Counted from the stretch's first letter, positions 25,238 through 45,429 are shown. The stretch: 64,000 bases of DNA from Spirochaetota bacterium (GCA_963664815.2 CAXXHB010000003.1:3168001-3232000); one strand, 5' to 3'. The notes: a model not told the origin generated them from the sequence alone. Program-made: numbers and translations.

Positions 25238-25533
25238 ACAGTCTATCAGATAACTGTAGAAATAATTATTTTACGGGATTATTATTTTTTCCGGTAAAAT
25301 CACCGGATTTTTACTGTATGTTATTTCAAAGATCGGGAGAAAATGGGATTCGAATTCCTATGACTGTTCTGAGTATTTTCAAAGCATGCACTGTCCGATG
25401 TCAGTGATTTCGTCCAACAAAAGTCTTAACATAGCTGCTGTCTGAAGATTGAAATTATCTGTTCAATGTTTTTATACCGCTAATAAAGATTAGCGGTTTT
25501 TTTGGGGCAGCTACGTTAAGACTTCTATAAGTT
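25238..25533 (+). mobile_element. IS91-family element A, 3'-end remnant with oriIS-like motif and terminal hairpin
   Basis: Homologous to the ends of the 30360, 35803 and 41198 copies; GGATTCGAATTCCTAT then GTCCAAC and hairpin ending at GTT. Confidence 0.8.
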
Positions 25534-26617: not shown

Positions 26618-28451
26618 GTCGAGTGGCGCGAAGGAACTTCCCCTCCGCGCTCTCACGGAACCAGACGTGAATCTCTCAATTCATCCGGCTCTTATTGTTC
26701 AGCCTTTACAGTAAAGAAGACCCCAATGCGTGAAAAGTTTCGGCTCTTTCATTGCTATGCGCTCTATCCAGTGCCTTGCTCTGCGCTTATGACCCCTTAA
26801 CCTTTTATATTTCTTCATTGCCCATTTTGTCAGTATTAAATCAAACAGCCTTAGTGTCGGATACATCGCCGACCGGTAAAAGGCATAGTAATAATTTATC
26901 CATCCTCTGATTCTGGCATTGAACATGCGGGATATCTCCTCAAGTGTCTGGCTGCTCCGAAGATGAACCTTCCACACTTTCATAGTTTCCCTTATATTTT
27001 TCATAGCCTTATCACTGGCGGCAGGACTGAAATTGACAAAGTATTTCCCATGTTTTGTTTTCGACATTCTGGCCTTAAAAGTAAATCCCAGAAAATCAAA
27101 ATTTACTACAGGATATCTCTGCTTTCTCTTGTCATCCCTGCAATAAACAATCTTTGTCTTCTCCGGATGAAGTTCAAGTTTACACTCATTCATCCTTTCT
27201 TCAAGTGCATGCTTCAACTGTATAGCCTGTTCTTCAGTGCTGCAATGACAGATACAGTCGTCTGCGTACCTTTCAAAAGGTATTGACGGATAGTTTCTCA
27301 CCATCCATGCGTCAAATGCGTAATGAAGATAAAGATTCGCAAGCAGCGGGCTTATTACTCCCCCCTGTGGCGTCCCTTTTGTTCTCTCCTCAAGACTGCC
27401 ATCCGGCATTTTCACCGGAGCTTTCAGCCAGCGTTCAATATACAGTATAACCCATCTGCTTTTTGTATGCTTACACACCGCCTTCATCATCAGATCATGA
27501 TCTATTGTATCAAAGAATCCTTTGATATCAAGGTCGATTACCCAGTCATATTTCCAGCAGTGTCTTCGGGCTCTTTCAACTGCATCTTTAGCCGAACGCC
27601 CTGGCCGATAGCCGTATGAATTTTGATGAAATACCTTTTCAAGTTCAGGCTCAAGCATACGCTTGACCACCGTCTGGGCTATCCTGTCAGATACTGCAGG
27701 TATTCCCAGTGATCTTTTCTTCCCGTCACTTTTCGGAATTTCAACACGTAATACCGGCGGAGGCAAATAACTTCCGGATGACATACGGTTCCAGATTTTA
27801 AACAGGTTATTTTTTAAATCTGATTCAAAATCTTTTAGCTTTACTCCGTCTGCTCCGGATGCTCCTCTGTTCGCTTTTACCTGTTTGTAACTATCCCATA
27901 CTTCCTGTCTGGATATTTGAAACGGCTTTGCCTTATCCAATCAATTCCTCCCGTTACCGGTTGATTAATCTCTAAAGCTGAACAATGTGCCCCCTTTGCT
28001 CCATCTCCATTACAGAGACTTCTTCACTACTACGGGACACTCCGCCCCTGTGCTTTGCCTCGGTACTCTCATCCTTGCGGGGCCACCGCTTGAAATTCTC
28101 CCTTATCATCAAAGCGACTTACTTCTCACATTGAACATAAAAGCCAGCTGTAAAGTCACACCATCTTTATGCCGGAAGCCGTCCGGACAGTAAACAGGTC
28201 TCCTCCGGACTTATCCCGGAATCCACATTACACCCCGGTTTTGACTTCAACTGTAGCCTCTTTCGACACCTCAACGATGATTCACTTTCGTTTGTCTCCT
28301 TACAACACACCTGACGTGTTTATCACGCCTTTTCCTTAACGCTCACCACAGTAGCTCTTTACCAATGCAGCTTAAGGTGGTTTGAAGCCTGTACCTGTAT
28401 ACCGGCTCCGAAGGGCCCTCCTTCATCTTTTACACTCCTTCCGTGACACAC
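26618..28451 (-). mobile_element. Complete group II intron, RmInt1-like (bacterial class D, no endonuclease)
   Basis: 5' GTGTG at 28451; DV GAGCCGGATGAATTGAGAGATTCACGTCTGGTTC; DVI ending ACTCGAC at 26618; EBS1 AATGTGG (28229-28223) complementary to 5' exon CCACATT. Confidence 0.92.
26699..27940 (-). CDS. ltrA: Group II intron reverse transcriptase/maturase
   Basis: KIWNRMSSGSY, SYGYRPGRS, DLDIKGFFD, GTPQGGVISPLLANLYL, RYADD, FDFLGFTF; no HNH domain. Confidence 0.97.
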   Translation of the reverse strand: MDKAKPFQISRQEVWDSYKQVKANRGASGADGVKLKDFESDLKNNLFKIWNRMSSGSYLPPPVLRVEIPKSDGKKRSLGIPAVSDRIAQTVVKRMLEPELEKVFHQNSYGYRPGRSAKDAVERARRHCWKYDWVIDLDIKGFFDTIDHDLMMKAVCKHTKSRWVILYIERWLKAPVKMPDGSLEERTKGTPQGGVISPLLANLYLHYAFDAWMVRNYPSIPFERYADDCICHCSTEEQAIQLKHALEERMNECKLELHPEKTKIVYCRDDKRKQRYPVVNFDFLGFTFKARMSKTKHGKYFVNFSPAASDKAMKNIRETMKVWKVHLRSSQTLEEISRMFNARIRGWINYYYAFYRSAMYPTLRLFDLILTKWAMKKYKRLRGHKRRARHWIERIAMKEPKLFTHWGLLYCKG

Positions 28452-28542
28452 AATGTGGCAAAGCCCAAGTGAGGTACTCTGAACTCTGCGGGTAAGCTTT
28501 GTTGTATGCCGTAAGCGAATTTTGGATTTAATTTATTTTTAT

Positions 28543-29868
28543 TCAAAAAGCAAAAAATTCCGTAATGCATGTATCCTCAAATTTAATCCCAGGGTAAACA
28601 TCTTTTATTGTTATACGAATTTTTGTAATTTCGTAATCGCAATCAAAATCTTCCGGGGCAATAAGAATACTTGTCACATTTATCTCTTTATTGACACCTT
28701 CAAAATCATCTTCGCCCCAATTCAGCAATGCAAAATATTTCGTTTTCAAGTCATCTATGGTTATAGTTTTACTAAATGAAAAAGAGCTTCCATCTGCTCC
28801 TTTCTTGTTACCCTGAATATCACATTGTACTTTTTTAATTCTAGAATTATTTGTAAACAATTTGCTGGATCTCATAAAACCATTCGCAATTGCAATATTT
28901 TTTACACCCTCTTTAAAATCGACTTCAATCCACTCTCCAATCCCATTTCCATCTGCACCTTCCGCCCATGCCGTTTTGAATGTCCCGTCGATAAGATTTT
29001 TAACCGAATAAGGCCCTTTAAGACTGCTCGAAGCGGATATGTTTTTTACTAACAAAGATGTTTTATTTTTCAACACCTGACTGCGGTATTTTTTATAATA
29101 TTTTTCAAGATCATATGCAATTTCAAGATCTCTTAATTTTGAAAAATTTACCTTTTCTATGATTACGCTCTGATTATAATTTTGTTTTTGAAAGCCTTTA
29201 ATCCCATTAATTTTAAAATCAATTTTTTTCATATCTAATACAAAGGTATCTATAACGATTTCTAATTTATCAACAACACCTTTACCCCAGCCAGCTGCAG
29301 GTTTAAAATTATATACGAAAGTTCTTATCCTGTCGCTCCCTTCATCACCGTTATAACTTGATCTTGCTAAATAATTAATTTGAATAATGTTTATCCCTTT
29401 GTTTAGTTTTATCTTTGACAAATACCACTTAATTTCATCATCTTCATCAGATTCAAAAAAATCTTCTCTTTTAATTTTATTTATTTTTTGAGTCAGTGTA
29501 ACATCAGAATTATTTATTGTCATCTTAAAATATTTAATAGAATCATTATCACTATTTTTAAAAGACTGGAAATCTACAAGCCCTACATGCTTGTTATAAA
29601 ATGGAAATCCGAAATCTACAGTTTTATTATCATCTCTACAGTTCAGTTCATATATTAACTGAATATTGACATAATCATCAATAGGTCTGATGAATAGCTT
29701 TTCAGATAAAAGATCAACATTTTCAAATTTTTTTAATTGGACATTACCTGTTGATACAAGTGTTGAACCCTCAATTGGGCCTCCGTTTGATTGAAGTGGA
29801 AATGAGTAGAATATGCTTACTGAAAAAAATAATAAACCAAGAATAGATTCTCTAACTATTTTCATCAC
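28543..29868 (-). CDS. Secreted protein: DUF4424-like N-terminus plus discoidin/NADase-type glycan-binding domain (cassette)
   Basis: Signal peptide; ASSSL..NLIDG..TAWAEG..GIGEWI..NGF..NSRIKK motif. Confidence 0.65.
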   Translation of the reverse strand: MMKIVRESILGLLFFSVSIFYSFPLQSNGGPIEGSTLVSTGNVQLKKFENVDLLSEKLFIRPIDDYVNIQLIYELNCRDDNKTVDFGFPFYNKHVGLVDFQSFKNSDNDSIKYFKMTINNSDVTLTQKINKIKREDFFESDEDDEIKWYLSKIKLNKGINIIQINYLARSSYNGDEGSDRIRTFVYNFKPAAGWGKGVVDKLEIVIDTFVLDMKKIDFKINGIKGFQKQNYNQSVIIEKVNFSKLRDLEIAYDLEKYYKKYRSQVLKNKTSLLVKNISASSSLKGPYSVKNLIDGTFKTAWAEGADGNGIGEWIEVDFKEGVKNIAIANGFMRSSKLFTNNSRIKKVQCDIQGNKKGADGSSFSFSKTITIDDLKTKYFALLNWGEDDFEGVNKEINVTSILIAPEDFDCDYEITKIRITIKDVYPGIKFEDTCITEFFAF

Positions 29869-29966
29869 AAACCTCTTTGAGTTTTATTATCAAAAATCTG
29901 CTATGAATTAACAGTATTTTGTATAAGAAAATATATAGTTAATAAAAAAAGTTCAATTCGCTTATA

Positions 29967-30359
29967 GTCTGGTAGGTCAGGAAGCTCGCACCTCCTTTCC
30001 CCCATAAGAACCGTACGTGGAAGTTTTTACCACAGGCACTTCCTCCGGTCGCCTTCACACGGCTCAAGCCGTCTAAAGCTGATTTTACAACCAGCCGCTG
30101 TTATCTGTTTGTATTCCCATTTTTCTATAGTAGAAATAATCAGAATCTACTTTTAGAAATGGGTTCCTGTCAAGACTTATCATTCTGTGCCGTACAATTT
30201 TAATGTGTCCCGCAGTAATGAGAATCTCCTCATCAGAGCAGAAAGTTTAAGTACCGGTTTTTAAGCCATAAAGAATTTTTCATCGGGTGTCTGAATCTGC
30301 CCCATATCCATAGAGCCTGAAAAAGAACAGTATCGAGTTTTAAAGGCTACCTTTGACAT
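29967..30359 (-). mobile_element. 3' fragment of a second group II intron (maturase domain X, DV, DVI)
   Basis: Minus strand KLDTVLFQALWIWGRFRHPMKNSLWLKNRY..IKIVRHRMISLDRNPF; GAGCCG..CACGTACGGTTC; ends CTACCAGAC. Confidence 0.85.
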
Positions 30360-31252
30360 TCATGAAAATGCTTTTATTCCACCTCGGCAAAGAACTTAAA
30401 AACGGTTCTTTAAAGACACCTGACGGCATTGAAGATACAGAAAAGCTTTTTAATCAGCTTGCGTATATTCCATAGGTTGTAAACTCCCAGCCTCCCGGCA
30501 AAGGTAAAAAGAAACCGGTAAACATAGTCCGCTATCTTTCGAGATACGTTGCTAAAAGTGCAGTCAGTGATAAACGGATACAGAAAGCGGAGAATGGAAA
30601 TGTTTACATCCGCTATTACAATAGAAAAAGGAAGCAGAGTAAAATGGAGGTTGTTACAGAGATTCAATTTATGAAACGGCTGGTACTGCATATTCTTCCT
30701 AAAGGATTTAAAAAGTCCGGTTCTTCGGGTTTATGGCAAACCATAACAGGGCAAACAATCTTGCCCTTTGCCGGATGTTTCTTGGTCAGCCCCTGGCGGA
30801 GCAGGATGAGCGGAGCAAAGAGCTTCTTGAGGATACAGCTTTCCTGTTCTGGAAATATTTCAGGATTGATATAACTCTCTGCAGGGAGTGCGAAAAGGGA
30901 CACATTCATTATATCCATGGCCTGTCGACTTACGGTTAGCTGTTATAAAGAAGTATATCCGCACAGATTTAAAAAACTGTTTTATAGAGAGGATAAGTAT
31001 GTCCGGAGCATTTGAGATTTTTCATAAAATCGCCATTCACAGTCTATCAGATAACTGTAGAAATAATTATTTTACGGAATTATTATTTTTTCCGGTAAGA
31101 TCATCGGATTTTTACTGTATGTTATTTCAAAGATCGGGAGAAAACGGTATTCAAATTCCTAAATATACTGTTCGATCCCAGTGGTTTCGTCCAACAGAGT
31201 CTTAACATAGCTGCTACCTGAAGATTAAAATTATCTGTTTAATGTTTTTATA
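30360..31252 (+). mobile_element. IS91-family element A, 3' transposase pseudogene, oriIS-like end, truncated hairpin
   Basis: RYLSRYV..HILPKGFKK..CRECEKG with stop and frameshift; GGTATTCAAATTCCTA; GTCCAAC. Confidence 0.85.
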
Positions 31253-31324
31253 AGTTTTTCAAAATATCCCCCATGCTCTTTTTCCACACCGAAGCGCATG
31301 GACGCGCGAAGGTTATTTAAAAAA

Positions 31325-32536
31325 TCATTGATTAACTGCTTCTCGCATGGAGTCTCTTTTGGATAATTCTCGTAATTGCAAATCTATTGATTTTATAACA
31401 ACTACGTCAGATTGAAATGGAAAAAGTCGATTTTCTTTAATTTCTTTTGTTTGAACAACTATTTTTAGCGGATAATTTTTTCCTACTGATGCTTTTTCTA
31501 ACTTTTCAATGGTTTCTTCAACTGTATCATATTCACCTTGAATTTTTACAGGTACAGGAAAGCCATTATGGTGCTCTTTTAAAAAACCATCTATGCCAGT
31601 ATTTCTTTGAACTGGTAATGCATTAATACTTGCAAGTATTGATAATTCATAATCATTTTTAACTAAATAATCTGATGTTCCTTTTTTTAAGAGATTAGAT
31701 TGAGTTATTACCATCTCATCAAGACGAGAATTTGAAAGATTTACAGCATCTATAGAAATATCAATCCCAATATATTTTCTGTTTAGTAGTTTTGCAGAAA
31801 CACAAGTTGTCCCACTACCACAAAATGGGTCTAAAACAATATCACCCTCATCAGTTGAAATATTTATAATTTGATTTAAAAGTAAAACCGGTTTTTGAGT
31901 TGGATAACCAGTTCTTTCTTTTGCTTTAGGATTAAGGTATGGAATTTCCCATACATCTGATAACGGGACACCTTTCTTTTCTTTTCCAATTACTATTTTT
32001 CCATTATCATCCTTTTTATATATTGATTTACCATTTGTATCTCTTTCACGCTCTTGTAATATTTGATCAATATTTGTCGTAGCTGAATAGTCTGTATATA
32101 TCGTGTTAAATTTAAATTCAGATGCTTTTGAATAAAAAAATATTATTTGATGAGAATTTAAAAGTCCTTTTTTAGAATTAGACCATCTTTTATAAGACCA
32201 AACTATTTCACTTTGAAAATTTTCAGTTTGAAAAACTTCATCTAATAAAATTCTTATATAATGTGATGCAGTTTTATCACAATGCAAAAAAACCGAACCA
32301 GTATTTTTAAGTATTCGATTACATTGGATCAATACTTCTTTAATTAAAAATGTATATTCATCAATTGAATCAAATTTATCATCAAATTCGTATATCTTTG
32401 AATTATCACGATTTGCTAAAGAATGCTTTTTCTGAGTAAAAAATGGTGGATCAAAATAGATTAAATCAATTGACTCAGAATTTATTTCTAATAATTTTTC
32501 TAAGCAGTTACCATGAATAATTTTATTTGTTTCCAT
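31325..32536 (-). CDS. N4/N6 DNA methyltransferase of a type II RM system
   Basis: DLIYFDPPF, YPTQKP, VLDPFCGSGTT (beta-class motif order). Confidence 0.92.
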   Translation of the reverse strand: METNKIIHGNCLEKLLEINSESIDLIYFDPPFFTQKKHSLANRDNSKIYEFDDKFDSIDEYTFLIKEVLIQCNRILKNTGSVFLHCDKTASHYIRILLDEVFQTENFQSEIVWSYKRWSNSKKGLLNSHQIIFFYSKASEFKFNTIYTDYSATTNIDQILQERERDTNGKSIYKKDDNGKIVIGKEKKGVPLSDVWEIPYLNPKAKERTGYPTQKPVLLLNQIINISTDEGDIVLDPFCGSGTTCVSAKLLNRKYIGIDISIDAVNLSNSRLDEMVITQSNLLKKGTSDYLVKNDYELSILASINALPVQRNTGIDGFLKEHHNGFPVPVKIQGEYDTVEETIEKLEKASVGKNYPLKIVVQTKEIKENRLFPFQSDVVVIKSIDLQLRELSKRDSMREAVNQ

Positions 32537-33161
32537 TATCGGGAGTCCTTTCATTAGCTATTTCTATTAAAATCTTTTTAAGATCAATACCTGTGTATTT
32601 ATATACATAATTCCAAGCCTCGTCACCAACATAATATTCTCCATTCACCGCCGAGTAAAGTGTCTTAAGAGTTTCCTGGATTTTAATAGCTTGAGCTCTT
32701 TGGGGATAATAAAACATAACCCGTATCGGCTTATAACCCTGATTTTGTATAACTTTTACCCTCGTGTGTTCTTTTGTAATATGATCTCCATCAGTTGTCG
32801 CATCTCGCCATTTTATTTCTATTGCATCATTACCATTTAAAAAGTCAATTTCAAATGTTTTTGGTCTTTGACCAATTGTATTGTTAATCTTTGTCTTTAT
32901 ACCATCAGGAAATTTATAATTAAAACATAGTGTAGCTGCTTCCCCTAAAAATGAACCAGCATATTTATATAAAAATCGACCGGTATTTTGATAAACATCA
33001 ATCAGTTTGCCTTCTTTTGATGTTATTCCAAGAACTCTATATATTAAATAATATGAATTATCATCATTATTCATCTCTTTTTTTCGTTGTTTAATTTTTT
33101 TATTGAGCTCAGATGCGTATTTTTCAGCTAATTTAATAATTTTGTTTTTTAATTCGTCCAT
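32523..33161 (-). CDS. ApaLI-like type II restriction endonuclease
   Basis: GRFLYKYAGSFL, FEID..AIEIKWRDATTDGDHITKEH; overlaps the MTase start. Confidence 0.8.
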   Translation of the reverse strand: MDELKNKIIKLAEKYASELNKKIKQRKKEMNNDDNSYYLIYRVLGITSKEGKLIDVYQNTGRFLYKYAGSFLGEAATLCFNYKFPDGIKTKINNTIGQRPKTFEIDFLNGNDAIEIKWRDATTDGDHITKEHTRVKVIQNQGYKPIRVMFYYPQRAQAIKIQETLKTLYSAVNGEYYVGDEAWNYVYKYTGIDLKKILIEIANERTPDNGNK

Positions 33162-33280
33162 ATATTTCTTCCAAATAAATATTTCTTAGCCCGGCACAGA
33201 AGCCGAGCTTCTTTAAAAGGGCATGGGGGTTGTATTTTTTCAATTATTTTTCTTCAAAAACAAAAAGATTGGCTTCCCAA

Positions 33281-33460
33281 GTCTGGTAGGTCGGGGAGTT
33301 TGCACCCCCTTTCCCCCATAAGAACCGTACGTGAAAGTTTTACCACAGGCACTTCCTCCGGTCGCCCTTCATACGGCTCAAGCAGTCTTAAGCTCTCTAT
33401 TCAACCAGCCGCTGTTATCTGTTTTTATTCCCATTTTTCTATAGTAGAAATAATCAGAAT
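33281..33460 (-). mobile_element. Short copy of the group II intron 3' fragment (DV-DVI)
   Basis: Near-identical to the starts of the 29967 and 40805 copies; ends CTACCAGAC. Confidence 0.85.
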
Positions 33461-33624
33461 AAAAGTATCCCTTCATGGTCTTTTTATAGTTCCATAATCA
33501 TAGTATTAATATATAGATAATAATCTACAACTGCTCTGGTTATCCGGTAATGACTGATACTTCAGCGGTTCAGGAATCTCTTTCACTACAAGCCTTCCGG
33601 TTTTACATGCAGTGCAGCATGAAA
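33449..33624 (-). mobile_element. IS91-family element B, degraded 3' remnant
   Basis: Homologous to 38284-38462; minus strand ..CCTACKTGRL.. Confidence 0.65.
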
Positions 33625-33731
33625 CGCGACAGCTTTTTACATCAGCTATGGTAAGGCATTATACATGTCACGGGTAAAAGTTATTGCACATCCTGTATGA
33701 AGAGTTTCATACGGCCTGGCAGGAGTCAGTA

Positions 33732-34595
33732 TTATTCTTTCGCCCCTGCTTTTTTAAGTATATCAACAATTTCAGAATAACCTTTCTCTTTCGCTATCTC
33801 TGATGCAGAATAACCCATGGCATTGTCTTTAGCATTGACGTCTGCACCTTTACTGATCAGCAGTTTTACAGCTTCAATATCTCCTGATTCTGCAGCATTA
33901 AACAGGGCGGTAAATCCATCCCTGTCTCTGGAGTTAACATTGGCTCCCCTGCTAATTAGCAGTTTAACTATTGTTATATTTACAGGATTGAACAGTCCTG
34001 ATGTGACATACATCAGGACTGTCTTGCCTTCATTATCTTTAGCATTGACATCTGCACCTTTATCCATCAGGATTTTAAAGATTTCAGTATTATCATTTTT
34101 TGAAGCGGCATACATCAGGGGATTGCATCCGTGGTCATCTTTTGCATTAACATCTGCTCCCTTGCTGACCAGGAGTTTTATAATTTCAGTGTTCCGGTAT
34201 ATTACCGAATATATTAAAGGTGTTTTACCTGAAATAGTTTTAGCATTTACATTCGCTTCATGGTTGATGAGGAGCGCGGCTATTTCTGTATTTTCTTTTT
34301 CTATAGCTACTATCAGGGGTGAGTAGCCTGAAGCTGTTTCGGGATTAATACCGGCGCCGTTACTTATAAGCAGCCTGACAATTTCTGTATTTTCTTTTTT
34401 TACAGCGAACATTACAGGTGTCCATCCGCCATCAGCTTTGTAATTGACATCCGCGCCTGCCGAGATTGTTGCCCTGACATCTTCCAGATTCCCGCTTTCT
34501 ACTGCATCAAGCAGTTTCCGATTCAGATCGTTGTTCTTCGCATATATTGCGTTTGCGGCCAGGCATATAAGAGTGATAATAAAAAAATTTTTCAT
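33732..34595 (-). CDS. Secreted ankyrin-repeat protein
   Basis: Signal peptide; repeated G.TPL..A....IVKLL.SKGADVNAKD units. Confidence 0.93.
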   Translation of the reverse strand: MKNFFIITLICLAANAIYAKNNDLNRKLLDAVESGNLEDVRATISAGADVNYKADGGWTPVMFAVKKENTEIVRLLISNGAGINPETASGYSPLIVAIEKENTEIAALLINHEANVNAKTISGKTPLIYSVIYRNTEIIKLLVSKGADVNAKDDHGCNPLMYAASKNDNTEIFKILMDKGADVNAKDNEGKTVLMYVTSGLFNPVNITIVKLLISRGANVNSRDRDGFTALFNAAESGDIEAVKLLISKGADVNAKDNAMGYSASEIAKEKGYSEIVDILKKAGAKE

Positions 34596-34850
34596 AAACG
34601 GAGTCCTCCGTATATCATCGGGTACATAACGGGGTTTGTATTATAAATCCGGTATTATTCATTCGGCATTTCATTCATTTCAAGTATTGTTTTCCAGTTT
34701 CTTGCTGTAGATATAGGGCTTAACTTTTTTTCTATATAAGTACCGATGAATTCGGACCTTACTGCTCCATCTTGATAATATATGCAGCCGACAATCATAG
34801 TCCGGCTGCAAGCACTTCTTGTAACCTGTTTTATATATTTAACTGCATAG

Positions 34851-35404
34851 CTAAAAAGCCCTGATAGCCCTGACCCATCCATCATCACATTCGTTTATCA
34901 TAGCGCCGCTCTGAACTCCGGTACTAAAATACTGGCCTATCGCGTAATTGTAACCATCATCAGTCGAGCTCCAATAGAATTCTTCGCTAAGTCCTCCGAC
35001 TTTTGCTTTTTCAAATTTAAATACATTAAATTAAGTTCATCTTTCGATGGCAAAAACCAGTCATTTTTCCCACCTCCGCGATAATCGGCACATAGCCTTG
35101 CCGCTGAATTAACTGTGCCGCAGTTTTGTAATGCAGACCGGGTATTGCTTTTTCCTGTCCCTATTGCTGTTCCATTAGCGCCGGATTTAGCGTCACCGGA
35201 ACAACCCCATATTGTATGTTTACTCTGGTCTTCAGGTGCAGCTTCCAAATAACGCCATCCATCGGTATATTTACCCTTGTCATAAAATATCCAGCCGCCG
35301 GCGGAGCCTTTACTCCTGAGTTTATATACTTTTTCCCCTGCACAAATATCAGAATAAAAAAACAGCATCAACATTAAAGGTATAAACATCAAAAACCTTT
35401 TCAT
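34851..35404 (-). pseudogene. Lcl/DUF1566-like C-type-lectin-fold protein, frameshifted near 35005
   Basis: AGGWIFYDKG..WRYLEAAP..DWFLPSKDELNLMY, then shifted frame VGGLSEEFYWSST..VRAIRAF*. Confidence 0.8.
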
Positions 35405-35664
35405 AATACTCTCCGGATTCTTTATAATGAGAATATGAAACATTGAATTTAAAAAAATTTCAAGTTTTTTCTTTCTCATTCCAGCAAAAAAGAAAGTTAC
35501 AACATCCAACTCCTTTAGCAGTCATATTAACTTATATATCAAGTAAACTTCGATAAATCACAGAAAGTAAATACGAAACTCGCTGGAGTTAACGGGACAG
35601 ATTAGAACTTATCGGTAGATCGAATCAGTAATCTTCTTGATAAAAAGTATTCAATACGCCCTTT

Positions 35665-35800
35665 TTAAATTAAATCAAGGAACCTTCTGAACTTGATGTC
35701 CGAATCGCTGGTATGCTTCATCAACCAGTCATATAGGAAATCGAGCAACTCAAAGGAGACGACCAGCCCCCCTTCATCGAACTGGCTCTTCAGTTTCACC
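35665..35800 (-). pseudogene. Hemerythrin-like C-terminal fragment
   Basis: ELLDFLYDWLMKHTSDSDIKF matches the W..HI...D hemerythrin end; cut at IS91-A remnant. Confidence 0.55.
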
Positions 35801-35802
35801 AA

Positions 35803-36222
35803 AAAGGACACATTCATTATATCCATGGCCTGACCGCTTACGGTTAGCTGTTATAATGAAGTTTAGCTGTACTGCACAGATTTTAAAAACTGTTTCATAG
35901 AGAGGATAAGTATGTCCGGAGCATTTGAGATTTTTCATAAAATCGCCATTCACAGTCTATCAGATAACTGTAAAAATAATTATTTTACTGGATTATTATT
36001 TCCCCTGGTAAAATCACCGGATTTTTACTGTATGTTATTTCAAAGATCGGGATAAAACGGTATTCAAATTCCTATATATACTGTTCGATCCCAGTGGTTT
36101 CGTCCAACAGAGTCTTAACATAGCTGCTGTCTGAAGATTGAAATTATCTGTTTAATGTTTTTATACTGCTAATAAATATTAGCGGTTTTTTTGAGGCAAC
36201 TACGTTAAGACTTCTATAAGTT
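35803..36222 (+). mobile_element. IS91-family element A, 3'-end remnant with hairpin (36102-36226)
   Basis: KGHIHYIHGL tail; GGTATTCAAATTCCTATA; GTCCAAC hairpin ending CTATAA|GTT. Confidence 0.85.
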
Positions 36223-36273
36223 AAATGCTGTTGCCAAGGTTATAAAAAAGTAGAATCCTATATTGTTTATCAA

Positions 36274-36918
36274 TTATTTTCTATATTTTTTTAATAATTC
36301 ACTTTTCTTTTCAGTCGGTAAAACTTGTTTCGTAGGTATTTTAATTTCATTAAAAACGGTTTCTAGTTGTCCACCAGACTTAATTGTTTTCTGATATATC
36401 ATTTCAGTAGCGGATTTATTATTTTCAATAACATATACTATTTTTTCATAATCTTTAGAACTTGCTGCAGCAATTCCGCCTCCCGCTCCTCCTAATAAAA
36501 GAAGTGCATAATTAGTTTTTTCAGAACTCGAATCATAAAATGCAGTAATGTCACCTAAGTAAACTTTTTTACCACCACCATTATTTTCAAAGTTAATTCT
36601 TTTATCATTTTCAAAAAAAAACAATTTTGAATTAAAACCATTTTTACAGGCAATACGTGATAAATAGTTTTTACCGATTTTACCTTTCCCAACAAAAAAA
36701 CCGTTTTCATCTATATTCATAAAAGATTTTTGACTGTTCTGCTCATCCATGAAGATAAGATTACAACTTCTTGTTACATCCTCACCATCTATGAAAATAT
36801 GAAAAGTACCATAAAAAACTCCAGTTCCATTTTCAATTTCTAGATCATTAAAATTTTTCGTAGTAGTAGCACAACCTGTTATTAAAATACTTAATAGCAT
36901 GGTAAAAATAATTTTCAT
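36274..36918 (-). CDS. Lipoprotein (cassette)
   Basis: Lipobox LITGC; flanked by GTTAAATGCTGTTGCCA / TGGCAATTGCATTTAAC. Confidence 0.8.
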   Translation of the reverse strand: MKIIFTMLLSILITGCATTTKNFNDLEIENGTGVFYGTFHIFIDGEDVTRSCNLIFMDEQNSQKSFMNIDENGFFVGKGKIGKNYLSRIACKNGFNSKLFFFENDKRINFENNGGGKKVYLGDITAFYDSSSEKTNYALLLLGGAGGGIAAASSKDYEKIVYVIENNKSATEMIYQKTIKSGGQLETVFNEIKIPTKQVLPTEKKSELLKKYRK

Positions 36919-36980
36919 TTTTAATCTCCAAATGTTTAATTCTAATGTATATATTTTTCTAAAAAAAATATGGCAATTGC

Positions 36981-37180
36981 ATTTAACGGCCAGGCTAACT
37001 GACGTTGGCGATCAGCCAATGTGCTGACCTGAAAATCTACAAAACCCTGACACATCATATTCAAAAACACAACTCAAATGTCCAGGCTACAAACATGGAA
37101 GCCAAGCACGGATGCTATTCCGTTCCTTTGAAAATCAAAAAGTTCATTCAGCCGTGCGCCGCTGTTAGCCGGTGTTATCG
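36981..37180. other. Long attC-like site between two cassettes
   Basis: ATTTAAC-GGCCA-GGCTAAC ... GTTAGCC-GGT-GTTATCG; internal GACGTTGGC..GCCAATGTG resembles the intron-hit site. Confidence 0.65.
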
Positions 37181-37251
37181 GCTGTAGCAACAACCACTAA
37201 TATTTTATTTTGCCCTCGTTCACGGACGAATGAGGGCAGGTCACAGGTTAA

Positions 37252-37968
37252 TCATTCAATTAATTCAAAGCTTTTAAATAAATATTCTTTTGAATCTTTT
37301 TTGTAATACATTTTAAAATCAATCAGGCAACCTTTTACAATATCAAAATGTGAAGTTACATGCAATCCCAGTAAATTATAACCATCAATATATGCAATAT
37401 TTGAAGTTATACTTTTTAATGTATAATTGATTAATATTTTATCAGGTTTTCCTTCATTGTCATATTCAAAGATATTATTCCATGATTCACCTATAGAAAT
37501 CTCTTTCTCCGAGAAATAAATTGGGATGATAATAGGGTTACCGTTTGGGACATTTTTGCGTTTAAACCTAAATAAGTTGAAGCCAAAAATGCAATTACTA
37601 TATACATAGTCACTTTCATTTTTAATAAACTCACCAGATGGCTTGATACGATTTTCAATTTCACTGCCCACCGTATAAAAATATCCCGGATATGATAATG
37701 GATTACAGCATGACTTCTTATCAAAGATTGTAAGGGTGTATGATAACTTCAAAATATCATTATCATTTTCTTTTATAGATATTTTTACAATACTTAAATC
37801 AGAATAAATTCCTGTTAATTGTTTTACTAATGCATTTTCTGGAAATGACTGAAGTTGTATTTTATATTTCAAAACTTCATTAGGCTTGAAAACCAAGGTT
37901 ACTTTATCAGAAGTATATCCTTGTGAAACGATTGACATAGCGAATATTAGAGTAAGAATTTTTTTCAT
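37252..37968 (-). CDS. Secreted hypothetical protein (cassette)
   Basis: Signal peptide; flanked by GTTATCGGCTGTAGCAACAA / TTGTTGCCATTGCCGATAAC. Confidence 0.75.
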   Translation of the reverse strand: MKKILTLIFAMSIVSQGYTSDKVTLVFKPNEVLKYKIQLQSFPENALVKQLTGIYSDLSIVKISIKENDNDILKLSYTLTIFDKKSCCNPLSYPGYFYTVGSEIENRIKPSGEFIKNESDYVYSNCIFGFNLFRFKRKNVPNGNPIIIPIYFSEKEISIGESWNNIFEYDNEGKPDKILINYTLKSITSNIAYIDGYNLLGLHVTSHFDIVKGCLIDFKMYYKKDSKEYLFKSFELIE

Positions 37969-38032
37969 AAAATATATTTATCCTTATTTACTCGGCCACG
38001 GATGGCCGACCACAAAGTTTTGTTGCCATTGC

Positions 38033-38095
38033 CGATAACGTTAAGAAGAGTATCTTAATCAATCTTCTCCGATTGAGATACTCTTCAAGTTGGAC
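38033..38095. other. Short attC-like hairpin linked to the IS91-B end
   Basis: CGATAAC..GAAGAGTATCTTAATC / GATTGAGATACTCTTC..GTTGGAC. Confidence 0.7.
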
Positions 38096-38617
38096 AGAAC
38101 CGCCTGAGCAACAGCCCGATATAATATTAATGGATTTTAAATTACCGGATTTATAATTGCAAGAATAATTCGTATGTAGAAATTTGAATAAATAAACAAT
38201 TGCTTCTTTATAACAACCAATATATCTGCTTTTAAAATATACTGTTAAACGATACTTTCCGGAATAAATTATAAGTATTTCTTAATAATCAGAATAAAAG
38301 TATCCCTTCATGGTCTTCCTACAGCCACCACAATCATAATACATCAATATGCAGATAATAATATACAACCGCTCTGGTTCGCTGGAGGTGAACGATACCT
38401 CACCGGTTCAAGAATCTCTTTTACAATAAGCCTTCCGGTTTTGCATGCAGGGCAGCATGAAAGATTTTTACCTGTGACACGCAGATAGATTTCACTCCAT
38501 GTCTGCGGTATACTTTCATTCTTCTTTTGAATTTCGTAAAACTCGCGGCATGCCTCAACAGCCTACTTTTTGTTTCTGTGTGATAGAATTACAAAGTATC
38601 TGATGCGGACTCAAAGC
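38089..38617 (-). mobile_element. IS91-family element B, 3' remnant with end region
   Basis: Minus strand VRIRYFVILSHRNKK..TGKNLSCCPACKTGRL..RSPP; later GGTAATTTAAAATCCATTAA and GCGGTTCTGTCCAAC. Confidence 0.75.
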
Positions 38618-38649
38618 TGGAGTTGTCAGCTTTAACTGATTTTTTACAC

Positions 38650-38875
38650 AAAACCGGCAAAATTATATCGGGATAGATCAATTTTATTTTTCCACGACCC
38701 AGTGAATCGTATATTCCAGTGTTCCCGGGATGATTTGCTTTGTAAAATCAACCGGAATCATTATACCCTGCTCACATGAATATTGTTTATACCGTGCCAT
38801 GGATGCCTCCAATGGCTTTATTCACAGCATAACTATTATGTAATTGCAATCAATTTATACTTTTTTTACAATCTC
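38650..38875 (-). mobile_element. IS1182-family left end and transposase N-terminus
   Basis: ATG at 38800: MARYKQYSCEQGIMIPVDFTKQIIPGTLEYTIHWVVE; terminal GAGATTGTAAAAAAA. Confidence 0.75.
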
Positions 38876-39123
38876 GTTATATGAAAGCGCTTAACAACGA
38901 CCAGTCGCAGCAATACACGGATGTATTGCTGCGTTCCGACGAAACAGATTATATCTCAGAACATGAGCAATCATATTTTAATATTTTGCAGTATCAGTAT
39001 AAGTCAATAAAATAATTGACATATGCTTATAAAGAGTAATTATTTGAATATTCGATGAAACGAGTAGAGGAGATTCATTCATTCTAAAATATTTATCTTA
39101 TATTAAAAAAGGAGACATATATT

Positions 39124-39696
39124 ATGAAGAAAAATGTTTCATCAGCAGTTTTAGTAATGGTTCTGTTAATGTTTGCAGGAACAGGAGTTTTATTTGTAAG
39201 CGAAAGTAACGCGAAGAGTAAGACATACAGAATAGGAGATAAAGGCCCTGCAGGAGGCTGGATATTTTATGATAAAGGGAATTCTTCTGATGGATGGCGG
39301 TATTTAGAAGCCGCACCAAATGATCAGAGCGCTGAATCAGCGTGGGGCTGTTATGAAAAATCAATTCCCGGTGCGCAAGGAACAGCTATTGGAACGGGAA
39401 AAACCAATACTGCAGTAATAATTGGAAGCTGCGATGAATCAGGAATAGCAGCTAAAGTCGCAGCTGATTATCGTGGCGGAGGAAAAAGCGACTGGTTTTT
39501 ACCATCTGATGATGAACTGAATCTGATGTATCATAATTTGCATATAAAAGGAATTGGCGGTTTCGCCGAAGGCGACTATTGGAGTTCGTCTGAGGGCCCT
39601 GCGGACGGCGCGGCGAAACAGAATTTCATCGCTGGCGGTCATGACTACTACAATAAGGTCATGACGTTAAGGGTTAGGGCTGTCCGGGCTTTTTAA
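39124..39696 (+). CDS. Exported Lcl/DUF1566-like C-type-lectin-fold protein, candidate DGR target
   Basis: YRIGDKGPAGGWIFYDKG, DWFLPS.DEL, YWSSSE...VRAVRAF*; AGGAG RBS. Confidence 0.85.
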   Translation: MKKNVSSAVLVMVLLMFAGTGVLFVSESNAKSKTYRIGDKGPAGGWIFYDKGNSSDGWRYLEAAPNDQSAESAWGCYEKSIPGAQGTAIGTGKTNTAVIIGSCDESGIAAKVAADYRGGGKSDWFLPSDDELNLMYHNLHIKGIGGFAEGDYWSSSEGPADGAAKQNFIAGGHDYYNKVMTLRVRAVRAF

Positions 39697-39711
39697 CAAT
39701 TTTTCACAGGG

Positions 39712-39900
39712 CAACCGCTCTGGTTCGCCGGAGGTGAACGATACCTCACCGGTTCAGGATTCTCTTTCACTACAAGCCTTCCGGTTTTGCATGCAGGGCA
39801 GCATGAAAGATTTTTACCTGTGATACGCAGATAGATTTCACTCCATGTCTGCGGTATACTTTCATTCTTCTTTTGAATTTCGTAAAACTCGCGGCATGCC
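39712..39900 (-). mobile_element. IS91-family element B, transposase C-terminal remnant
   Basis: Near-identical to 38366-38554; ACREFYE..CCPACKTGRL..RSPP. Confidence 0.75.
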
Positions 39901-39904
39901 TATC

Positions 39905-40208
39905 ACCATTCTGAGGATAGAACCCTTATTTGATATACAAATTAAGCGGCAATTTTAAATCGGTGGTGACATCTATCATCGTGGACTGGAAAAGGTTAAC
40001 ACAATCTAGGCTCTTATCTGTATTGCTCATAATTTCCGGAAGCCCGCCCGGTTGGAATACGGATTATAATTAAATAAAGTAAAATATTCCCGAAGACACA
40101 CAATCTTCGGGATACATACAGGATTGTCAAAATAAAAGCAGAGGGTATTCAGCCGATATTATTTTAGAGTACTCAATTTTTTTAATAAGCTACTTTTGCG
40201 ACAGACTC
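39905..40208 (+). mobile_element. IS1182-family C-terminal remnant and right end
   Basis: RIEPLF..HRGLEKVNT..ALICIAHNFRK; terminal TTTTGCGACAGACTC. Confidence 0.65.
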
Positions 40209-40240
40209 GTTTGTTGTGTGCAGTATCGCGGTTTACACAT

Positions 40241-40777
40241 TCATTTATCAATTACAAATGTAACTTCTTGAAATGTTCCAGGCCGTGGTACAATTGGAGG
40301 AAATATACATCCAGGTATGCATGCAATTGTTTTTTTTATCGCTTTACTATCATCAAGTTTTAGTTTTATTGTTTCATCCTGTTTAATCTTCAAATGTAGC
40401 ATTCGAATTGAACCAATTCCAGGGTTTTGCGAAGTACCGTACGTATCAGCCTGTCCAGTTGCCGCATGTAGGATATATTCTATTTTTAAATCACCAACTG
40501 GTACTGGAAATTTATATTTAAAATCATCTTTTTTATAAATCTTTTTATCATTTTGATCAAAATAATGATTACCAAAAGTTCCATAAAAATATTCTTCATC
40601 ATTCACAATAAATTTACAAGACCAGTGATCAATATATTTATAATAATTGAAGTCTAATACTATATAACCATGCGCAGATAATAAAATTGAATTTTCTTTT
40701 TCTTTAATCTGTCGTGATGGTGTACACGATGTAATAAAAAATAGGATAAGTATAATTATTGATATATGTTTTTGCAT
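40241..40777 (-). CDS. Lipoprotein (cassette)
   Basis: Lipobox FITSC; cassette edge GTTGTGTGCAGTATCGC at 40213, partial mirror GCGATA at 40799-40804. Confidence 0.78.
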   Translation of the reverse strand: MQKHISIIILILFFITSCTPSRQIKEKENSILLSAHGYIVLDFNYYKYIDHWSCKFIVNDEEYFYGTFGNHYFDQNDKKIYKKDDFKYKFPVPVGDLKIEYILHAATGQADTYGTSQNPGIGSIRMLHLKIKQDETIKLKLDDSKAIKKTIACIPGCIFPPIVPRPGTFQEVTFVIDK

Positions 40778-40804
40778 TTACTAACTCCTAAAGTTTTAGC
40801 GATA

Positions 40805-41197
40805 GTCTGGCAGGTCGGGGAGTTTGCACCCACTTTCCCCCATAAGAACCGTACGTGAAAGTTTTACCACAGGCACTTCCTCCGGTCGCCCTTCATACGG
40901 CTCAAGCCGTCTAAAGCTGATTATACAACCAGCCGCTGTTATCTGTTTGTATTCCCATTTTTCTATAGTAGAAATAATCAGAATCTTCTTTTAAAAATGG
41001 GTTCCTGTCAAGACTTATCATTCTGTGTCGTACAATTTTAATGTGTCCCGCAGTAATGAGAATCTCCTCATCAGAGCAGAAAGTTTAAGTACTGGTTTTT
41101 AAGTCATAAAGAATTTTTCATCGGGTGTCTGAATCTGCCCCATATCCATAGAGCCTGAAAAAGAACAGTATCGAGTTTTAAAGGCTACCTTTGACAT
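40805..41197 (-). mobile_element. 3' fragment of the second group II intron (copy of 29967-30359)
   Basis: Same domain X, DV and DVI sequence and same junction CTTTGACAT|TCATGAAA. Confidence 0.85.
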
Positions 41198-42147
41198 TCA
41201 TGAAAATGCTTTTATTCCACCTCGGCAAAGAACTTAAAAACGGTTCTTTAAAGACACCTGACGGCATTGAAAATATTGCAAAGCTTTTTAATCAGCTTGC
41301 GCATATTCCATGGGTTGTAAACTCCCAGCCTCCCGGCAAAGGTAAAAAGAAACCGGTAAACATAGTCCGCTATCTTTCGAGATACGTTGCTAAAAGTGCA
41401 GTCAGTGATAAACGGATACAGAAAGCGGAGAATGGAAATGTTTACATCCGCTATTACAATAGAAAAAGGAAGCAAAGTAAAATTGAGGTTGTTACAGAGA
41501 TTCAATTCATGAAACGTCTGGCACTGCATATTCTTCCTAAAGGATTTAAAAAAGTCCGGTTCTTCGGTTTTATGGCAAACCATAACAGGGCAAACAATCT
41601 TGCCCTTTGCCGGATGTTTCTTGGTCAGCCTCTGGCAGAACAGTATGAGCAGAGCAAAGAGCTTCCTGATGATACGGCTTTCCTGTTCTGGAAATATTTC
41701 AGGATTGATATAACTCTCTGCAGGGAGTGCGGAAGAGGACACATTCATTATATCCATGGCCTGTCGACTTAAGGTTAGCTGTTATAAAGAGTATATCCGC
41801 ACAGATTTAAAAAACTGTTTCATAGAGAGGATAAGTATGCCCGGAGCTTTTGAGATTTTGCATAAAATCGCCATTCACAGTCTATCAGATAACTGTAGAA
41901 ATAATTATTTTACGGGATTATTATTTTTTCCGGTAAAATCACCGGATTTTTATTGTATGTTATTTCAAAGATCGGGAGAAAACGGTATTCAAATTCCTAT
42001 ATATACTGTTCGATCCCAGTGGTTTCGTCCAACAGAGTCTTAACATAGTTGTTGTCTGAAGATTAAAATTATCTGTTTAATGTTTTTATACCGCTAATAA
42101 AGATAAGCGGTTTTTTTGAGGCAACTACGTTAAGACTTCTATAAGTT
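41198..42147 (+). mobile_element. IS91-family element A, 3' half of transposase, oriIS-like end and hairpin (42027-42151)
   Basis: WVVNSQPP..VRYLSRYV..LHILPKGFKKVRFFGFMAN..CREC; GGTATTCAAATTCCTATA; hairpin ends CTATAA|GTT. Confidence 0.88.
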
Positions 42148-42172
42148 GTGCGAAGAACACGAATTAATACTA

Positions 42173-43872: not shown

Positions 43873-44320
43873 ATTGTCAGACGGGGCTATATGAATTTCA
43901 TTTTTATTCATTACTTAACTTACTCATCATTGCAACCGGCTATTAATACATATCAGGATTGTCTATATTTCAATACTTCTTTAGTATTCAAATAAATATT
44001 ATATATTTTATACAAAATCAGTAATCACGTTATTAAGCTGGCTGCCGTGCAATGAAGGAATATGAAAAAAATGTTACAAGCACAAATCATGCCGAAACTG
44101 CTGCATTTGGGCCTGGTTTATACCCCTTCTACCTCAATGTATCCGCTATCTGTTCGCCATGTATTCGCCATCTATCCGGCGAACTAACTTCAGAATTTTT
44201 TTTGCTTTTCCCGGAAATTTTTTAAATTCTTCTGTTTCAGACGTATTAATGTTATGTAAGGATGCCGGGGGGAGCATTATAACGCGCTATCGATAATCCA
44301 CATCAGTCCCATTACCGCTC

Positions 44321-44758
44321 CTCCCGGTTTCCTTAACTACACCGCTCCCCGGGTGTTTTTAAGTGAAACGAGAAATGTCCCGAGGGGATCACTACCGGAA
44401 AACTGTTTTCTTAAAACATATTAATAATATCAATCTTTGAACACGATTACAGGATTTAAGGATTAACGGGATTTTCTGCAGAGTGAACAGACATCAGGAC
44501 AGGTGCTCCCTGCATATCTCTTTGATACTGTTCGTAATGAAATATTATCAATATGCCCGTGTCAGCTATGAAACCGCATCTTCAAGTTTCTTAAACCACA
44601 CCGTTCCCCGAGTGTTTTTAGTGAAACTGGAAATGTATCGAGGGGATCACTACAGGATCTCCCGGTTTCCTTAACCTCACCGCTCCCCGGGTATTTTTTA
44701 AGTAAAACCGTAAATGCTTTATCCTCCCCTCGCCATTTAGAGAGGGCCGGGGGTGAGG
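44321..44758. repeat. Cluster of three ~60-75 bp REP-like repeats plus a GC-rich palindromic element
   Basis: CACCG(C/T)TCCCCG.GT.TTTTT..GT.AAAC at ~44340, ~44599, ~44678; CCCCTC..GAGAGGG..GGGGGTGAGG at 44723-44758. Confidence 0.6.
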
Positions 44759-44889
44759 TCTGCATCGTGCATCATCTGGTTCAGATTCAAATTCACTGCA
44801 GATTTATGACAAAATTCCGACTCTGTTTACAGAGTATTCAGTTTCGCCTACATTTCGCTTCAATTACGCCTCAAACACGCTACTGACAG

Positions 44890-45429
44890 TTAAAAACGCG
44901 CGTTTTTCTCTGTCAGTAACGGAGTTGAAACGGTATTGAAACGGTTTTTAACAGGGTCTACATACTGCTTAAGTCCTGTTTTAACAGCTTCACCTCTGTC
45001 TTTTGCTGCATTAATATTATTCTCCCCATCTGCTGATCTGCTGTTTTCTGAACAGTAACAGGTATATTCTGCAACTTCTCCGGAAGCAGATACAACCACC
45101 GCATCCCCTGTTCCGCCGTTTCCCGATGGAGTAACAGGTGAACCGGGTGCAATGCCGCGAAGGTATTCAGACATAAAAAGGTTATACCCTGACTTTCTCT
45201 TCCTCTTTGCCCTGTTTCTGTAGAGAGCCTTCTCCTCTTCCGGAAGAACCTGCCAGGCCTTAACACCGCCGCCGAAATTACCCCTGCACTTCACCTGCGG
45301 TTCAGTTCGCGGATTAGCAGGAATTGTACGTGCTTTAATGTAGATTTTACCATAGCGTCTGTAAAACACAAGATCGCCCATACCTCCATGCGCAGTTCTT
45401 AAATAAGGATGAAGCTTTACTTTTGCCAT
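44890..45429 (-). CDS. Basic hypothetical protein, possibly DNA-binding
   Basis: AAGGAG RBS; Lys/Arg-rich N-terminal 90 aa. Confidence 0.6.
   Translation of the reverse strand: MAKVKLHPYLRTAHGGMGDLVFYRRYGKIYIKARTIPANPRTEPQVKCRGNFGGGVKAWQVLPEEEKALYRNRAKRKRKSGYNLFMSEYLRGIAPGSPVTPSGNGGTGDAVVVSASGEVAEYTCYCSENSRSADGENNINAAKDRGEAVKTGLKQYVDPVKNRFNTVSTPLLTEKNARF

Follow-up and report, generated by a model that had tools for sequence, protein, structure and literature searches.

A ~1.3-kb unit that occurs twice in a 64,000-nt stretch of a Spirochaetota bacterium genome (GCA_963664815.2 CAXXHB010000003.1:3168001-3232000; the window, hereafter) has a minus-strand group II intron 3′-end fused to the 3′-end of an IS91-family element and an attC-like palindrome on the plus strand, and is best read as what remains of two mobile elements, each of which homes to hairpin sites in an integron-like cassette array. 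In the history that we favour, though we judge it evenly balanced between right and wrong, three neighbours at a cassette junction would have been fused by decay, and the fused form would then have been spread by homologous recombination or gene conversion. The order of these events and the mechanism of copying are what we infer from the copies of the unit found in the genome (5.2 Mb, 3 contigs).

Structure and copy number of the repeated unit

By repeat search and pairwise alignment, the units at 29967-31252 (copy A) and 40805-42115 (copy B) are 95.7% identical over 1288 alignment columns. Copy B runs on to 42147 through a complete 140-nt palindromic site, designated PAL1, and copy A departs after 31252, in mid-palindrome. 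The internal junction lies at 30359|30360 in copy A and at 41197|41198 in copy B and is the same in all four long copies of the genome, while comparison of copies A and B showed both the left and the right flanks to be unlike. The near-identity, the common junction and the differing flanks reported in the initial annotation were all borne out. The parts of the two units are as follows, T1 being the type of IS91-Int element (an IS91-family element that also encodes a tyrosine recombinase) from which the plus-strand portion derives.

40805..41197, minus strand: intron 3′-terminal 393 nt of copy B (RF00029 match at 40805-40905; alignment of 11 copies; boundary common to 19 copies)
41198..41772, plus strand: C-terminal half of the T1 Y2 transposase, copy B (open frame 41191-41772; PF04986)
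41773..42026, plus strand: T1 3′ non-coding region, copy B (homology to sequence that follows intact T1-like transposase genes)
42027..42147, plus strand: PAL1, copy B (31 genome-wide BLAST matches, flank alignment, fold scan and flank consensus)
29967..30359, minus strand: intron 3′ fragment of copy A (RF00029 and the shared boundary)
30360..31169, plus strand: T1 transposase tail and 3′ non-coding region of copy A, with a frameshift and one in-frame stop
31170..31252, plus strand: partial PAL1 region of copy A (left 83 nt of the 140-nt query only)

The intron piece of copy B comprises a frameshifted maturase tail, domain V (DV) with a 25-nt loop insertion, and domain VI (DVI); its 3′-end at 40805 lies 28 nt upstream of an open reading frame (ORF) at 40241-40777, and that of copy A, at 29967, lies 99 nt upstream of the ORF at 28543-29868. 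The right terminal inverted repeat of T1 in copy B occupies 42017-42026, the pair being deduced from L045, L048 and T2, a second IS91-Int type. The partial region of copy A holds the T1 right end, a GTCCAAC box and the palindrome's left portion, and continues from 31253 into a different right half. Read along the strand of the cassette genes, which is the minus strand of the window, the order is the upstream gene, PAL1, the T1 remnant in antisense, the last 0.4 kb of the intron in sense, and the downstream gene; the junctions marked by the units are junctions of integron-like cassette arrays.

The genome census gave four long units with the same junction and five short, deletion-form units where the intron piece of the long units is linked to the T1 3′ region, a 15-nt remnant of the T1 left end lying in between, exact in four of the five and with one base changed in the fifth. 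Several further truncations of T1, each followed by PAL1, and many smaller pieces were also present, and a genome BLAST search with the 140-nt PAL1 query returned 31 matches in six clusters and a few singles. Across the intron/IS91 junction, both units carry a 20-21-nt inverted repeat (41084-41104/41232-41252 and 30246-30265/30395-30414), whose arms, ~128 nt apart, are 76-80% complementary; it may be due to chance or may be a trace of how the deletion formed.

An origin of the duplication in misassembly, through a collapsed or chimeric repeat, would accord with a repeat-rich region in which short-read contigs fragment, and such an error had been raised at the outset as a way in which the unit might prove spurious. 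However, the four copies stand in different contexts and differ by 4-13% plus indels, and public short-read contigs (4 runs from 2 studies, one run possibly the source sample) bridge copy B from both studies: its internal junction in X3 record 19 (zero differences), X2 record 12 and X5 record 28, its left boundary in X1 record 1 and X2 record 9, and its right boundary in X5 record 32 (one run). Misassembly is therefore no serious option, and we put its chance at next to nothing.

The intron fragment is a truncated 3′-end that probably marks many insertion sites

Searches with RF00029, which models domains V and VI and has a cut-off of 40 bits, gave minus-strand matches at 40805-40905 (43 bits) and at 33281-33381, and copy A scored 40.0 bits in the genome search; both units are among the nine places in the genome where the full model is matched at or above the cut-off. 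The DV and DVI that had been annotated on the minus strand were thereby recovered in both units, and as the final model position coincides with the repeat boundary, the left boundary is, as had been claimed, the exact intron 3′ splice site. Beyond DV and DVI, ~290 nt of the intron part encode the C-terminal ~103 codons of a maturase. The 103-aa ORF of two sister copies in which the frame is open (L018:364-675 and L014:398-712) aligns with an intact 484-aa intron protein from a related genome over its residues 380-470 (BLASTP E 8e-15) and with positions 44-80 of 80 of Pfam GIIM (E 4.6e-4; 20.6 bits, under the 23-bit cut-off), which upholds the identification of this part as maturase domain X.

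The rest of the intron is missing, the GUGYG 5′ end and domains I-IV included. The unit encodes no reverse transcriptase (RT) domain, its intron protein being limited to the ~103 terminal codons; D1-D4 ribozyme families gave no Rfam match at E up to 1 at nine loci; RNAalifold found no support for covariation upstream of DV; and blastx against the intact intron-encoded protein of the window returned nothing significant for the intron piece. A full parent, which the initial annotation had proposed to look for, was not found in the genome, and no RT of the truncated lineage was found either, the sole intron RT/maturase gene of the genome belonging to another lineage. Among eight intron-RT loci, several of them intact, in four related genomes, nhmmer likewise found no parental intron, and only one of the eight shows similarity in DV/DVI. 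Because the 5′ boundary is constant across six junction contexts, the piece was also considered as a mini-intron complete in itself, ORF-less and with a true 5′ end; its start within the maturase frame, together with the missing D1-D4 match, ruled this out.

These losses bear directly on the first reading put forward in the initial annotation, a single hybrid element whose left end would be made by reverse splicing of intron RNA and whose right end by att-site recombination. The exact 3′ splice site on the left and, on the right, an attC-like site with a recombination-type edge are what such an element would show. Reverse splicing, however, requires the exon-binding sites of domain I and a catalytic core. 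Of the intron, the unit has only the maturase tail, DV and DVI, without domains I-III; DV carries the 25-nt loop insertion in most copies of an 11-copy alignment; and the genome encodes no cognate RT. With the ribozyme core, the RT and an intact transposase all absent, the hybrid with two chemistries fails, and we hold it to be highly improbable.

Nineteen intron fragments in the genome retain the 3′-end, and in 19/19 this end is sharp. Their flanks beyond it are unrelated, save for one duplicated pair; T opens the exon in 15 of the 19; an ORF of at least 90 aa in the same orientation starts at most 150 nt from the intron 3′-end in 16; and no conserved tetranucleotide was found at the intron/exon boundary. 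The sharp end, the unrelated flanks, the T bias and the nearby ORF starts together therefore point to the footprint of many separate retrohoming events close upstream of cassette genes. At several places (among them C3:1372387, 1379695 and 2561319, and window position 33281) the same intron 3′-end stands without attached T1 or PAL1. In copy A, the exon starts 11 nt into a presumed terminal repeat of the neighbouring cassette, as judged from a 10-nt match alone (29953-29962, plus strand, against 28515-28524, minus strand), with 11 further bases missing before AAC. The truncated cassette inverted repeat of the initial annotation could thus be checked for copy A alone, and a 10-nt match is weak by itself.

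The IS91-Int portion carries its own attC-like palindrome

The frame at 41191-41772 matches positions 52-180 of 183 of Pfam Y2_Tnp (PF04986; E 1.7e-25). The plus-strand IS91 transposase tail, the end region and the hairpin of the initial annotation were all recovered; the catalytic N-terminal half of the transposase is absent from the unit. At the DNA level the T1 tail is 70-74% identical to intact 381-aa genes of related genomes. In these genomes, and in metagenome-assembled genomes labelled Leptospirales or Spirochaetes, the intact relatives consist of a tyrosine-recombinase gene overlapping the 381-aa Y2 transposase gene. Their transposases score 323.9 and 429.5 bits against NF033538 (cut-off 125), and their recombinases fit XerA-type and integron-integrase models without the IntI-specific segment. 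The genome itself has neither an intact T1 transposase nor a T1 integrase, and its only full-length Y2 transposase, that of T2, is 24% identical to the T1 tail. The intron piece was also considered as the natural left end of T1; this found no support, with no RF00029 match at E up to 0.1 at ten loci of IS91-Int relatives, a test limited by short contigs that stop 47-199 nt upstream of the integrase gene.

PAL1 is an attC-like imperfect palindrome of 140 nt that has a GTCCAAC box, folds with an inner stem of 8 bp and a terminator-like hairpin, and closes with GTT. The right inverted repeat of T1 adjoins the GTCCAAC box in all 27 PAL1 copies that keep the box and stands beside a PAL1-like site at six of the seven sites examined in other genomes, and therefore PAL1 travels with T1. 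The right end has palindromes and GTTC/GTCC-like tetranucleotides beside GTCCAAC, as an oriIS of the IS91 family might, but the elements have terminal inverted repeats as well. In intact T1 and T2, the left inverted repeat adjoins the GTTGRAC box of another palindrome, and therefore the whole IS91-Int element is cassette-shaped.

Identity among PAL1 copies ends straight after the terminal GTT in 29/29 anchored copies. Beyond it lies a semi-conserved flank of 8 nt that, once reverse-complemented, corresponds to the inverse-core context in a further palindrome family, type 3, and the stop codon of an antisense ORF lies within 75 nt of the GTT at 23 of the 29 sites. The pattern reads as if T1 and PAL1 together had entered the site of the upstream cassette at its inverse-core box.

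Origin and spread of the fused unit

The copies of the unit are mosaics of one another. Along the four long copies the closest partner by identity switches, two 25-nt indels assort independently of long or short form, and of 741 pairs of informative sites 300 are incompatible by the four-gamete test, with incompatibility rising with distance (p 0.029). The mosaic copies therefore show that the dispersed intron and T1/PAL1 repeats undergo homologous recombination or gene conversion, a process that would suffice to spread the fusion among junctions already holding both elements. A homology module that shuffles cassettes between sites, the second reading of the initial annotation, is supported in part, namely by the mosaicism. 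Gene conversion between independently inserted introns, which had been named there as an explanation for a unit with just two copies, comes close to the favoured history, but the copies far exceed two.

Within the favoured history, a group II intron homing to sites just after cassette hairpins would have inserted upstream of many cassette genes, and T1, with its tyrosine recombinase, its Y2 transposase and PAL1 at its right end, would have landed in the inverse-core box of an upstream cassette. One deletion would then have removed the host hairpin and the 5′ 1.5 kb of the intron, fusing the left end of T1 to mid-maturase sequence. The full-length fragments share one 5′ point, and in the short units that point is in contact with the T1 left remnant, which argues for one ancestral joining event. 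In the long form, a further, later deletion would have taken the left 1.6 kb of T1 and given the observed junction. The fused form would finally have been copied, by homologous recombination or gene conversion, to junctions that already had the intron and T1/PAL1.

A different account, which we think unlikely but worth weighing, is that the fused unit is a non-autonomous element moving as one piece with enzymes supplied in trans by an intact T1. It could do so by an IS91 rolling-circle start at the PAL1/ori end that misses the lost terminator and stops at the intron 3′-end (one-ended transposition), or by excision and integration as a cassette-like circle through a tyrosine recombinase. This account would explain why the four long and five short copies have sharp ends and unrelated flanks, why all 19 intron copies stop at or short of the common cut, and why every PAL1-linked copy keeps the ori-side end of T1; the short form, with remnants of both T1 inverted repeats, also resembles a miniature derivative. 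IS91-family elements are described as mobilising adjacent DNA on failed termination, in 1-10% of IS91 events (PMC13181058). Yet the same sharp intron 3′-end occurs where neither T1 nor PAL1 is attached, the preference for T as first exon base is the mark of an intron, at a boundary without a conserved tetranucleotide, the copies are mosaic and not tree-like, and the genome lacks both T1 enzymes, transposase and integrase, in intact form.

Several observations weigh against fusion by decay followed by spread through recombination. Although 12 of the 19 intron copies reach the common 5′ cut, the finding just given that none passes it means that gene conversion alone would need to sweep all 19 copies, and multiplication after truncation would be simpler. 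The long- and short-form deletions end a few bases apart at the intron/T1 junction, a coincidence that would be explicable only by invoking transposase cleavage at the T1 left end. That left end is intact only in other genomes (L045 and L048) and, by analogy, in T2. The landing rule for T1 derives from the flank consensus and only six type-3 sites; the boxes of PAL1 are mirror images, so its orientation is ambiguous; and the conversion tracts are deduced from sequence mosaicism.

The cassette-array setting

The genes of the clusters are mostly co-oriented. Three palindrome families (PAL1, the 58-nt palindrome of T2, and type 3, which has nine loci, all in gene orientation) have ...AAC / GTT... 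boxes flanking their stems, and it is on these boxes and stems that their likeness to attC was judged. No IntI-type integrase was found in the genome: the best TIGR02249 score is 220.7 against a cut-off of 265, and all matches, below the cut-off, skip model positions 180-234. Against the family that fits best, the XerA-type model NF040815 (cut-off 220 bits), a 357-aa protein scores 235.3 bits and the T2 integrase 206 bits. The former, a tyrosine recombinase with an N-terminal extension of ~90 aa (C3:1972136-1973209, minus strand; L001), is encoded 4 kb from a small PAL1 cluster and could be the resident recombinase of the array.

One intron of another lineage is intact in the window and gives a living example of targeting to hairpin sites.

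26618..28451, minus strand: intact other-lineage group II intron (RF00029 and RF01999; ends set by 4-5 same-genus copies)

It encodes a 413-aa RT/maturase (26699-27940; TIGR04416, 436.8 bits) and interrupts an attC-like palindrome of type 3, its orientation matching that of the cassette ORFs, and 4-5 copies occupy equivalent sites in a same-genus genome (L035, L039 and L042).

The cargo of the window, at 31325-33161, 25554-26531, 28543-29868 and 33732-34595 (all on the minus strand), has a defence-related or effector-like look. It includes an ApaLI-like endonuclease with an N6/N4 methylase, a protein with an NADase-translocation domain, an ankyrin-repeat protein, and a protein weakly similar to TIR / nucleoside deoxyribosyltransferase. 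The window also has a TetR/methyltransferase pair as cargo. The edge of the array has three 51-nt direct repeats and a palindrome with 44-nt arms, a perfect centre and AAC/GTT ends (44310-44698 and 44856-44943). At the edge of the 1.37-Mb cluster, a 536-aa ORF (C3:1364323-1365933, plus strand) weakly matches RVT_1 (59.5 bits) and by score is not a group II intron protein.

Other fusions and remnants

T2 is represented in the genome by one intact copy (L009) and many remnants, and has a T1-like layout with the 58-nt palindrome. The window holds further pieces of both types, among them a third, different fusion.

33281..33624, minus strand: intron positions 1-180 joined to the T2 3′ region and transposase tail (repeat search, RF00029)
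35802..36222, plus strand: T1 remnant (last 39 nt of the transposase gene and the 3′ region) with a complete PAL1
25238..25533, plus strand: T1 3′-region remnant with a complete PAL1
38036..38560, minus strand: T2 remnant with transposase tail, 3′ region and 58-nt palindrome (compared with the intact T2 in L009)
39712-39901: further piece of the T2 transposase tail

Elsewhere in the genome a second recurrent chimera occurs, in which a reverse-strand T2 transposase tail is fused tail-to-tail to T1 transposase positions 387-574, followed by the T1 end and PAL1; its four copies (C3:1964520-1965286, 2543943-2544793, 3587642-3588019 and 3689700-3690526) have one junction. A conserved insertion of ~104 nt within the GTCCAAC box parts the T2 3′ region from the 58-nt palindrome at C3:1371500-1371604 and at five other places, and is possibly a miniature element; its spot is taken by a 359-aa ORF in the copy at 3687922-3689452. 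Position 58 of the T2 site was considered as a recombination crossover and dropped, the break being due to the variant with the ~104-nt insertion.

Comparison with known systems

PMC7923331 describes 5′-truncated group II introns, with DV/DVI and a partial intron-encoded protein, in cassette arrays and clusters of attC sites lacking integron integrases (CALINs), namely UHB.F1, H.ha.F1 and H.ha.F2, and an intron, UHB.I2, inserted in cassette orientation just after attC. The fragments studied here resemble the three truncated introns in that the 3′-end alone survives (DV, DVI and a partial protein), at array junctions without intI, in gene orientation and with an HUH-type insertion sequence nearby; they differ in being one truncated form in 19 copies with one cut point, and in being fused to an IS91-family remnant, whereas those are merely adjacent to IS200/605 (PMC7923331).

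Group IIC-attC introns such as S.ma.I2 home to attC hairpins and lie between gene and attC, and in the cassette-formation model of Leon and Roy genes and attC sites would become joined as copies of the intron recombine by homology (PMC3001079). Homing to hairpins and the position between gene and attC are common to both systems, but the IIC-attC introns described there lie on the bottom strand of attC, opposite to the cassette genes, whereas 16 of the 19 fragments here are co-oriented with the downstream ORF (PMC3001079). The intact intron of the window is likewise co-oriented with the genes, unlike an IIC-attC insertion. Relative to PAL1 in T1 orientation the fragments are on the opposite strand, so that the comparison hinges on the direction in which PAL1 is read.

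Some IS91 members in ISfinder carry an integrase gene. The family as a whole is described as having two distinct ends with subterminal palindromes, as using target tetranucleotides, and as capable of one-ended transposition and of forming a single-stranded circle as intermediate (PMC13181058). T1 agrees with IS91, IS801, IS1294 and the ISCR relatives in its Y2 HUH transposase, its palindrome-bearing right end and its apparent target specificity, and may share with them the capture of adjacent DNA that follows failed termination (PMC13181058). The intact relatives of T1 differ in several ways: a XerA/IntI-like tyrosine recombinase is encoded upstream, the termini bear short inverted repeats, an attC-like palindrome follows the right end, and the elements are seated in the 7-mer boxes of cassette sites.

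Integrons and CALINs are resembled in the arrays of mostly single genes, each closely followed by an imperfect palindrome, in the RYYYAAC / GTTRRRY-like boxes and in the conservation edge at GTT. The present system differs in that no integrase with the IntI-specific insertion was found, in having at least three palindrome families in both orientations, and in that one family is always attached to an IS91 end. Neither an intron-IS91 fusion nor an attC-homing IS91-Int element with its own attC-like palindrome was found in a literature search of incomplete coverage.

Implications

The unit itself is decayed, non-autonomous debris of modest interest; the surrounding system is of more. The unit flags a large integron-like system in a genome of spirochaete lineage that lacks a canonical integron integrase, with six clusters, one palindrome family of ~30 sites, and a cargo that includes restriction-modification, TIR-like, NADase-like and ankyrin proteins. 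Two unrelated kinds of mobile element, group II introns and recombinase-bearing IS91 elements, appear to converge on the same hairpin sites, and recombination among the dispersed repeats of 0.4-1.3 kb that they leave gives the array a second way of shuffling genes besides site-specific recombination.

A broader proposal, which we regard as a long shot, is that IS91-Int elements help build the cassette arrays, with each T1 landing delivering an attC-like hairpin 3′ of a gene, and the intron fragments serving as portable homology or promoters. The delivery of hairpins by T1 is proposed because every box-keeping PAL1 is attached to a T1 right end, and most stand just past the stop codon of an unrelated gene. 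Single-stranded circles of the rolling-circle kind have the form on which integron-type recombinases act. If the proposal holds, circles made by the rolling-circle transposase could be handled by the element's own IntI/XerA-like recombinase, and the intron fragments, whose 103-codon frame is often open and stands directly upstream of cassette genes, would offer the portable homology or promoters. Such a process would be a route to new gene cassettes, the origin of which is a long-standing question.

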